Assembly (NCBI GenBank): GCA_036881885.1
Contig: JBAJNL010000001.1
Span: forward strand, 2,377 to 66,376
Length of the DNA stretch: 64,000 nt
Reading direction: 5' to 3'
DNA from: Holosporaceae bacterium
GTDB lineage: Bacteria; Pseudomonadota; Alphaproteobacteria; Holosporales; Hepatobacteraceae
Shown here piece by piece: positions 16,160 to 17,245 of the stretch. The notes beneath the pieces were generated by a model. It was given only the letters and a program-made list of their open reading frames with translations. It was not told the origin of the DNA and made no database searches. The number at the start of each line of letters is the position of its first letter. Position 1 is the stretch's first letter. The position numbers were made by a program, and so were the translations under genes.

Positions 16160-17245
16160 TTAGGCTGCCTTGGTGCGTTTTGCTTTTCTTTTCCAATACT
16201 CTTCACCATACGATCGATACAATTGCTCGCCCACCTCAACGGCGCGACTGGTATAAATAAGCAGGTGTGGTGACATGGCCTGCGTGCGTATAAACGTGGT
16301 CACAACATTCGTATTCTTTAAGCAGCTGCTGGTATGTTGAGTACGATCAGTGTGGGTGCAAGGTGCATTGAAAAGTTCAGCAATGCCAATACGGTTGTTG
16401 GGAAAAAGATGAAAGTGATGCAAAGCATTGCCACAAGAGCTCTGATAGATCAGATTCGTTGTATAGTCGGTGGCGTGATAGCTTTCCAAGTTGGCCTCAA
16501 ACAAAGAGGGCGTTTCGCGTTGTTGGGTCACCTCTTGTGTTGTTTTGTCGCCACTAAGTTGCCATGCAAGCTGACCACCACCTAAACAAAACAGGCTGTG
16601 CGCGGCAATGGGTTTGGTGGCAAAGATACCGCGTCCCATGGTTTTTGTTTCAGCGATGCGCGCCATCGACGTAAAATGCGCTTTTGCGGCTTGTTCATCA
16701 AACTGCGTTGCTAAAAAGGTCTCAAGCTTTTCGGTGCCGCCCAGTTTTGTAACCAGCTCTGGGTTCTCTTCAAACCTGCCGTACTGCAAAAACGGATTTT
16801 GCGCCACTCTTTCTTTAAGCGCTTCGTCGGCAACTTCAAAAAGTTTTTTCATTTTTTGCTGAAAGCCAGCCGGTGTTTTCTCTTGCAGTCCCGCATCTAA
16901 GGCTTTTAAAAAAACTGCTTGGCCGCCAAGAAGCTGAAAAATCAGTTGATCATTTGCTGTCCAATCTTCGTCTTGTAACGGGCGAAACGGCACCTCAGGA
17001 TCACGATAGCGATTTGCAATCAGTGTTTGTAATTTTTTTGTAAAGCGTTGCCTTGGCGGTGGTTGCAGAAACTCTATGGTTTGGGGTGGGGTTTCTGCGT
17101 CCAGAACACGTTGTGCACACGGCATGACTTCTAGTTTGGTGGCAAAGCAATAAGCAGGCCTGTCAGTCTGCGCCACCGCTGCCCCCCTTAAAAGAAAGCC
17201 CGATAAAAGCGACGATAGTGCGCGTGAAAAGTCCTTCATAGACAT
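16160..17245 (-). CDS. SET-domain protein (putative protein lysine methyltransferase, eukaryote-like)
   Basis: The C-terminal ~170 aa carry SET-like blocks: MGRGIFATKPIAAHSLF, a degenerate NHSCxPN block (ELFNAPCTHTD) and LLIYTSRAVEVGEQLYRSYGEEYW. The tail is basic (KRKAKRTKAA). The N-terminal ~190 aa are unassigned. Confidence 0.6.
   Translation of the reverse strand: MSMKDFSRALSSLLSGFLLRGAAVAQTDRPAYCFATKLEVMPCAQRVLDAETPPQTIEFLQPPPRQRFTKKLQTLIANRYRDPEVPFRPLQDEDWTANDQLIFQLLGGQAVFLKALDAGLQEKTPAGFQQKMKKLFEVADEALKERVAQNPFLQYGRFEENPELVTKLGGTEKLETFLATQFDEQAAKAHFTSMARIAETKTMGRGIFATKPIAAHSLFCLGGGQLAWQLSGDKTTQEVTQQRETPSLFEANLESYHATDYTTNLIYQSSCGNALHHFHLFPNNRIGIAELFNAPCTHTDRTQHTSSCLKNTNVVTTFIRTQAMSPHLLIYTSRAVEVGEQLYRSYGEEYWKRKAKRTKAA

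Follow-up and report, generated by a model that had tools for sequence, protein, structure and literature searches.

Does the open reading frame (ORF) on the minus strand at 16160..17245 of a 64,000-nucleotide stretch of Holosporaceae bacterium DNA (assembly GCA_036881885.1, contig JBAJNL010000001.1, positions 2,377 to 66,376; hereafter the window) encode a SET-domain lysine methyltransferase directed at a eukaryotic host? An initial annotation, made from the letters alone, had proposed a eukaryote-like SET protein of effector type here, and the ORF lies exactly where it had been placed, with 361 residues (P0001). By profile and predicted fold the product is a SET-domain protein. Whether it works as an exported, host-directed, divergent SET lysine methyltransferase is, on what its sequence suggests, an evenly balanced question to us. 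The parts of the gene are the following.

16160..17245, minus strand: SET-domain gene P0001, 361 residues (ORF and translation; dN/dS 0.17; nine natural variants, all of 361 residues)
17171..17245, minus strand: signal-peptide-like N-terminus, residues 1-25 (MSMKDFSR / ALSSLLSGFLL / RGAAVA, then Q), as we infer from hydropathy
16796..17044, minus strand: putative helical N-terminal module, residues 68-150, common to the upstream ORFan (BLASTP)
16646..16783, minus strand: family-conserved helices before the SET core, residues 155-200 (F-x-EN...LGG-x-E-x-L-x-x-F; alignment, predicted local distance difference test (pLDDT) 86-97)
16205..16636, minus strand: SET core, residues 204-347 (Pfam SET)
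16307..16375, minus strand: NHSCxPN-equivalent block, residues 291-313 (alignments; pLDDT 84-90)
16193..16231, minus strand: ELxFDY-equivalent motif GEQLYRSYGEEYW, residues 339-351, with the catalytic Tyr Y346 (aligned to the canonical GEEL-x-YDYG)
16163..16192, minus strand: basic tail KRKAKRTKAA, residues 352-361 (translation)

Pfam analysis reports a SET match over the entire model (PF00856, positions 1-105 of 105; residues 204-347; 27.3 bits against a gathering cut-off of 22.4 bits, E 5e-6). In a six-frame search of the genome the gene scores 29.5 bits and is the only SET at Pfam level, while NCBIfam returned no match for this protein or for the adjacent ORFan. The motifs on which the initial annotation had relied are all present, at residues 204-213 (GRGIFATKPI), 291-300 (LFNAPCTHTD), 339-351 (the ELxFDY equivalent listed above), and 352-361 (KRKAKRTKAA). 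A family profile made from the SET halves of seven members, compared with all PDB sequences, reports its best hit with S. pombe Set7 (5h6z, E 1.4e-10), followed by EHMT2, SETD8, and EHMT1. The alignment with Set7 is confined to two short stretches, motif I and, near the C-terminus, the catalytic Tyr motif plus the W after it, and they give no evidence of orthology. The structure predicted for residues 150-361 from a 32-sequence alignment (pLDDT 77, predicted template modelling score 0.75) returns SET enzymes only in Foldseek (probability 1.00), although the alignment behind it included canonical bacterial SETs that pull the model towards the SET fold, which counts against reading too much into it. 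The two segments of the pseudoknot (NHSCxPN and ELxFDY) are both modelled, at pLDDT 84-97, inside the range aligned by the fold search. Modelling of the whole protein from seven sequences gave a result of too low a quality for use (pLDDT 49.6). Since the Pfam match, the profile match to PDB sequences, and the structure model agree, the protein is a SET-domain protein, and the proposed assignment stands.

In the model, the core lies between helices 162-192 and 347-360, which overlay the helices that border the domain at its N- and C-terminal ends in SET8 and ATXR5. The domain thus appears to resemble the minimal SET8/ATXR5 type, in which one helix stands at either end and a post-SET zinc cluster is missing. 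Sequence identity to SET8/KMT5A (3f9z, 1zkk) and ATXR5/6 (5vbc, 4o30) is only 15-19%. In contrast to these enzymes, P0001 has inserts in SET-I (~40 residues) and in the NHSCxPN block (9-16 residues), an Ala in place of the NH-motif His, and a 150-residue N-terminal region specific to its bacterial lineage.

The family to which the protein belongs is small. Searched exhaustively with HMMER, 1.84 billion representative proteins gave eight matches, to which word-indexed homologue searches, started from the protein alone or from the family alignment, contributed none. The family members make up about five clusters, none of them named: the protein's own cluster (P0003), P0004, P0005, P0006, and P0009. 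The sequences come from marine metagenomes, and ERZ907951 and ERZ908281 are among the Tara samples in which the source genome occurs. P0004 (376 residues) is 44% identical to P0001 over its full length, and it shares a 16.6-kb Tara contig, amid bacterial genes, with P0005; the related bacterium therefore has two paralogues. On this contig (scaffold_38, L012/L010), the two genes, of 376 and 294 residues, stand ~9.6 kb apart, and the shorter one adjoins a glycine-zipper gene of the 17-kDa-antigen type, of which the window has a counterpart at 12547-13029. The protein and its profile were not found in other genomes of the bacterial family, nor was the subfamily found in the rest of the order. Matches to a SET-like profile occur in 3 of the 22 genomes of the order, the source genome included, and in 4 of 401 genomes of the class. 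G010 (three genes) and G005 (one) of this order carry distant SET-like genes, as do two genomes (1.6-1.8 Mb; two and three genes) from a different alphaproteobacterial genus. The family is limited to reduced-genome marine alphaproteobacteria that are probably intracellular in eukaryotes.

SET domains as such are common in bacteria, with 64 of 401 sampled Pseudomonadota genomes carrying one, mostly as short canonical proteins in large genomes. These canonical proteins (PF00856, 130-260 residues, INHSCxPNC ... EELxYDYG) belong to the same Pfam family as P0001. They score 40-100 bits against 27-30 bits for P0001, keep the NH-motif His, are devoid of the inserts and of the N-terminal region, and come mostly from large, free-living genomes. 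In a maximum-likelihood tree of bacterial SET sequences, 17 endosymbiont sequences stand apart from them (support 99/93) and fall into three groups, each of them coherent.

Two sets of more distant genes were observed alongside this family. At loci L030-L034 (G182 and G324, the two genomes of the different genus just named), two to three long SET proteins per genome (244-430 residues) have an NHSCxPN insert of similar length, devoid of the Cys/His pattern described below, and no signal peptide; one of these genes has an in-frame TAG. The source genome itself holds a second, more degenerate SET-like paralogue (L028:1462-2370, plus strand, G000:C27; INAPEPGQEIN, ELLVKY), which falls below Pfam detection. 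A signal-like hydrophobic stretch lies in frame upstream of it, with no ATG, GTG, or TTG after the preceding stop; an unusual start codon, an assembly indel, or a frameshift could account for the missing start.

Is the domain a working enzyme? Residues were mapped onto the canonical positions with alignments A4 and A5. G204-R-G206 aligns with the GxG column of motif I that binds S-adenosylmethionine (SAM), and Y267 with the conserved lysine-channel Tyr. The ELxFDY equivalent reads E340-Q-L-Y-R-S-Y346-G, and its Tyr is found without exception across the subfamily and the nine natural variants. G204-x-G206, Y267, N293, N313, and Y346 all occupy canonical positions and are invariant in the subfamily, N293 even in all 32 aligned sequences. 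The NHSCxPN block, which had been described as degenerate, is indeed so: it reads N293-A294-P295-C296, is split by an insert, and resumes at N313. Ala294 takes the position of the NH-motif His, so that the N-H pair of active SET methyltransferases is absent. None of the 17 sequences of the endosymbiont clade has a His at this position, and mutation of this His inactivates SUV39H1 and DIM-5; both points speak against activity. With the His replaced, catalytic activity is not assured.

Within the insert lie H298, H304, and C308. The seven members of the close subfamily all share C296, H304, and C308, and at position 298 they have either His or Cys, which makes a conserved C-x-[H/C]-x5-H-x3-C pattern. 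In SUV39-type enzymes, the Cys of NHSC helps to form the post-SET zinc site. From this pattern and the retained NHSC Cys we infer that the insert possibly binds zinc in a small structural site. Such a Cys/His loop within the NHSCxPN block would stiffen the cofactor pocket.

The same block could also belong to a SET-like pseudoenzyme that is exported and has lost methyl transfer, its fold being kept for peptide or lysine binding, for instance to mask a host protein. The loss of the His throughout the clade fits this explanation, as does the interruption of the NHSCxPN segment, from which the knot and part of the cofactor pocket are built. The catalytic Tyr is also lost in some clade members (ELLSDG at L025, ELLRRT at L026), and the Pfam SET score of P0001 is among the lowest of the 64 matching genomes in the phylum sample. 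However, Y346, Y267, N293, N313, and the GxG are invariant in the subfamily, and conservation is strictest in the active-site block itself (residues 260-308), so that we regard a pseudoenzyme as unlikely.

Natural variation bears directly on this point. Compared with an 89%-identical orthologue from a Tara Oceans contig, the ratio of non-synonymous to synonymous substitution rates (dN/dS) is 0.17 at a synonymous divergence (dS) of 0.33, while that of the neighbouring ClpB is 0.05. Purifying selection acts on the gene. In the 90% cluster there are eight distinct natural sequences, and P0003 makes a ninth; all nine have 361 residues and are 85-97% identical. Across these nine variants, residues 260-308 (a stretch that takes in the NH block and its insert) are invariant save at 285 (R/C) and 300 (D/E), and no variant differs in the catalytic motif; substitutions concentrate in the N-terminus and in the SET-I insert (228-259). 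The strongest selection thus falls on the putative active site, which favours a working pocket over a decayed one, while the missing His keeps catalytic competence uncertain. A pseudogene or chance ORF had also been considered, and is ruled out by the dN/dS of 0.17 together with the constant length in nine variants.

Would such an enzyme have a host to act on? The source assembly comprises 1.13 Mb in 42 contigs (83% complete), and all 22 species representatives of the order have genomes of 0.6-1.7 Mb. Among its genes is one for an ATP/ADP translocase (577 bits), a protein that is a hallmark of intracellular bacteria living as energy parasites. Because of the translocase, the 1.13-Mb genome, the small genomes across the order, and the leucine-rich-repeat (LRR) proteins, the bacterium probably lives inside eukaryotic cells, and its gene content looks obligately intracellular.

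Export would begin at the N-terminus. Residues 1-25 are moderately signal-peptide-like and may act as a weak Sec signal: the best 11-residue hydropathy is 1.89, and an AxA-like site, (A/S)-V-A followed by Q, is kept in all nine variants. The related SET-like proteins of G010 and G005, four in all, begin with clear, textbook Sec signals. In the reading that we prefer, the protein would cross the inner membrane via the Sec pathway through this segment and, once in the host cell, would use host SAM to methylate lysines of a host protein. Chromatin proteins would be the obvious candidate targets, though nothing singles them out.

Several observations weigh against this course of events. The hydrophobic stretch is weak for a Sec signal, with its peak of 1.89 and an Arg at position 20; the N-terminus of P0004 is even less typical, and P0005 is devoid of the segment. 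The periplasm has no SAM for a Sec-exported enzyme, and no route across the outer membrane was identified for the SET protein. VirB4 and VirD4 were not found in the 83%-complete genome, and this also speaks against a type IV effector with a positively charged C-terminal signal, a candidate that had been considered. The only secretin is an orphan fusion to tetratricopeptide repeats (TPR), and the SET gene and the type VI sheath gene sit on different contigs and are not adjacent. Lastly, the basic character of the C-terminal tail is kept in the nine variants but not in the 44%-identical P0004, and the tail is predicted to lie within helix 347-360, the one that overlays the helix at the C-terminal end of the SET8 domain; it would therefore belong to the domain rather than extend freely from it. 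Within the KRKAKRTK tail that the initial annotation had pointed out, K356-R-T-K359 fits the minimal K-K/R-x-K/R pattern of a nuclear localisation signal (NLS).

As for secretion-related genes, the genome holds one GspE/PilB-type ATPase, two TolC-like genes, FlhA (an FlhA/SctV-type export gate), and a fused TssB-TssC type VI sheath gene, the sole type VI gene located. Nothing links the SET protein to any of these secretion-related genes. The sheath gene (L065:1126-3177, minus strand, G000:C5) is a single ORF of 684 residues with VipA (TssB), VipB, and VipB_2 (TssC) domains. The secretin fusion (L016:10147-11976, minus strand, G000:C4) encodes 610 residues, with N-terminal TPR repeats followed by the secretin domain; it lies between miaB and rpsB, with mfd and gyrB past miaB and no type II or type IV-pilus operon around.

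The N-terminus also allows another destination, in which it would serve as an amphipathic, Ser/Leu/Arg/Ala-rich presequence of mitochondrial or plastid type and the protein would be a host-organelle effector delivered by type VI secretion or by bacterial lysis. Residues 1-18 have a hydrophobic moment of 0.4-0.5 and a low mean hydrophobicity, residues 1-30 carry a net charge of +2 and are rich in S, L, R, A, and G, and the genome has its type VI sheath gene. In contrast, Asp5 and the conserved small-x-small site before Q26 fit signal peptidase I better, and distant members of the family carry plain hydrophobic Sec signals. We consider this destination very improbable.

A more far-reaching proposal extends the reading of an exported host methyltransferase to the whole clade. 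The 17 sequences would form a distinct family of Sec-exported, host-directed lysine methyltransferases used by protist endosymbionts devoid of type IV secretion, and the internal C-x-[H/C]-x5-H-x3-C zinc knuckle of the subfamily would functionally replace the post-SET zinc cluster, as a new way of closing the SAM/lysine channel. We hold this proposal to be possible but doubtful.

To our knowledge, chromatin-rewriting SET effectors are known from a handful of pathogens only, with type III or type IV secretion as the delivery route in every case. Examples that get as far as host chromatin are Legionella RomA/LegAS4, Chlamydia NUE, Burkholderia BtSET, and Bacillus BaSET (PMC3980110). P0001 resembles RomA/LegAS4, NUE/cpnSET, BtSET, and BaSET in being an accessory SET gene in a bacterium that probably lives in eukaryotic cells. 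By analogy, its short basic NLS-like motif, its LRR neighbours, and the proposed methylation of a host protein with host SAM are also reminiscent of nucleomodulins. It shows no specific relationship in sequence to these proteins. RomA/LegAS4 and the other nucleomodulins are not in the lists of sequence and fold matches of P0001, an absence that is no evidence against a relationship. Unlike them, P0001 has no ankyrin repeats, carries a Sec-like N-terminus, has lost the NH-motif His, and bears a Cys/His insert in its NHSCxPN block; no Dot/Icm or VirB-type system was found in its genome, an injectisome-type type III system not having been looked for.

If the enzyme is active, it would extend host protein methylation to marine protist symbioses, would show the 'essential' NH-motif His to be dispensable, and would have an internal Cys/His insert in the knot of a working SET enzyme; how a Sec-type SET protein gets to the host would then become a question as well. 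If inactive, it would illustrate how purifying selection can maintain a SET pseudoenzyme. Either outcome is a modest advance on a known theme and not a new kind of system, and the points that merit biochemical attention are the His-less clade and the Cys/His insert.

Is the gene, then, a resident of this genome or an accessory one? Its surroundings comprise the following features.

17341..17952, minus strand: upstream ORFan, with a probable true start at M28 (17871; 176 residues), from orthologue length
15948..16035, minus strand: tRNA-Ser(GGA), downstream boundary of the inserted gene pair (ARAGORN)
14311..15531, strand minus: LRR protein, context, candidate effector (Pfam LRR_4, 28.3 bits)

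As the initial annotation had stated, the SET gene lies between the tRNA-Ser(GGA), 124 bp downstream of it, and the ORFan. The order clpB, ORFan, SET, tRNA-Ser, LRR is retained in a related strain, in which the LRR neighbour is thus also present. In the sister genus (G002, 97% complete), the tRNA-Ser(GGA) directly follows clpB and the ORFan and SET genes are absent from the site; the pair is therefore a lineage-specific accessory insertion, or has been lost in G002. The suggested accessory status is borne out by this absence and by the lack of the protein and its profile elsewhere in the bacterial family. The same-genus genome G001 is uninformative for this comparison, being 71% complete and with clpB itself not found in it. 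Past the tRNA-Ser(GGA) of G002 (L069, G002:C2:213000-230000) stands a different gene, an ORFan of 674 residues on the opposite strand whose start is signal-like. The accessory genes beside the tRNA-Ser therefore differ between the two genera.

Two other origins of the gene were considered and rejected. Recent horizontal import is ruled out by a guanine-plus-cytosine (GC) content of 47.7%, equal to that of the genome, and by the stability of the locus between strains, and eukaryotic contamination by the position of the gene amid bacterial housekeeping genes on a 79-kb contig.

Methylation of the bacterium's own proteins is a suspected role of many SET proteins in free-living bacteria, and P0001 might likewise modify a nucleoid, ribosomal, or envelope protein of its own cell. 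The 64 of 401 Pseudomonadota genomes with a SET domain, most of them large and free-living, make such a role plausible, as do a GC content that does not point to recent import and the fact that no dedicated effector-translocation signal was identified. There is also precedent, with the archaeal Go1-SET methylating the chromatin protein MC1-alpha and cpnSET methylating the chlamydial Hc1 (PMC3980110). A housekeeping role is harder to reconcile with a gene pair that is absent from the G002 site and with a profile that finds relatives in no more than 2 of the order's 21 other genomes. It also sits uneasily with a clade set apart from the canonical short bacterial SETs (99/93), with the signal-like N-terminus of P0001 and the clear Sec signals of its relatives, and with LRR and putatively secreted ORFan genes as neighbours. 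We therefore find an own-protein role quite unlikely.

The N-terminal region, the first ~190 residues of which had been left as unassigned, can now be divided in part. Residues ~155-200 are the family-conserved helices, kept in P0004, P0005, and P0006. Residues 68-150 have no Pfam or NCBIfam match, but BLASTP aligns them with the C-terminal half of the ORFan (28% identity over 87 residues, E 2e-6), and they are helical in the low-confidence full-length model mentioned above. The adjacent SET and ORFan genes therefore share a paralogous, lineage-specific, undescribed module, probably helical. A D-W...F...GG...F motif is seen in the part shared by the two proteins. The ORFan orthologue of the related strain has 176 residues, so the ORFan probably starts at M28 (17871), and this start gives it a Sec-like signal.

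Consensus scans found no sigma-70-like promoter around the SET gene and terminators at chance level only, and no Shine-Dalgarno sequence is visible upstream of its ATG. Further along the window, at 13251-14108 on the plus strand, a single protein of 285 residues fuses a GrpB domain to a GNAT acetyltransferase domain.

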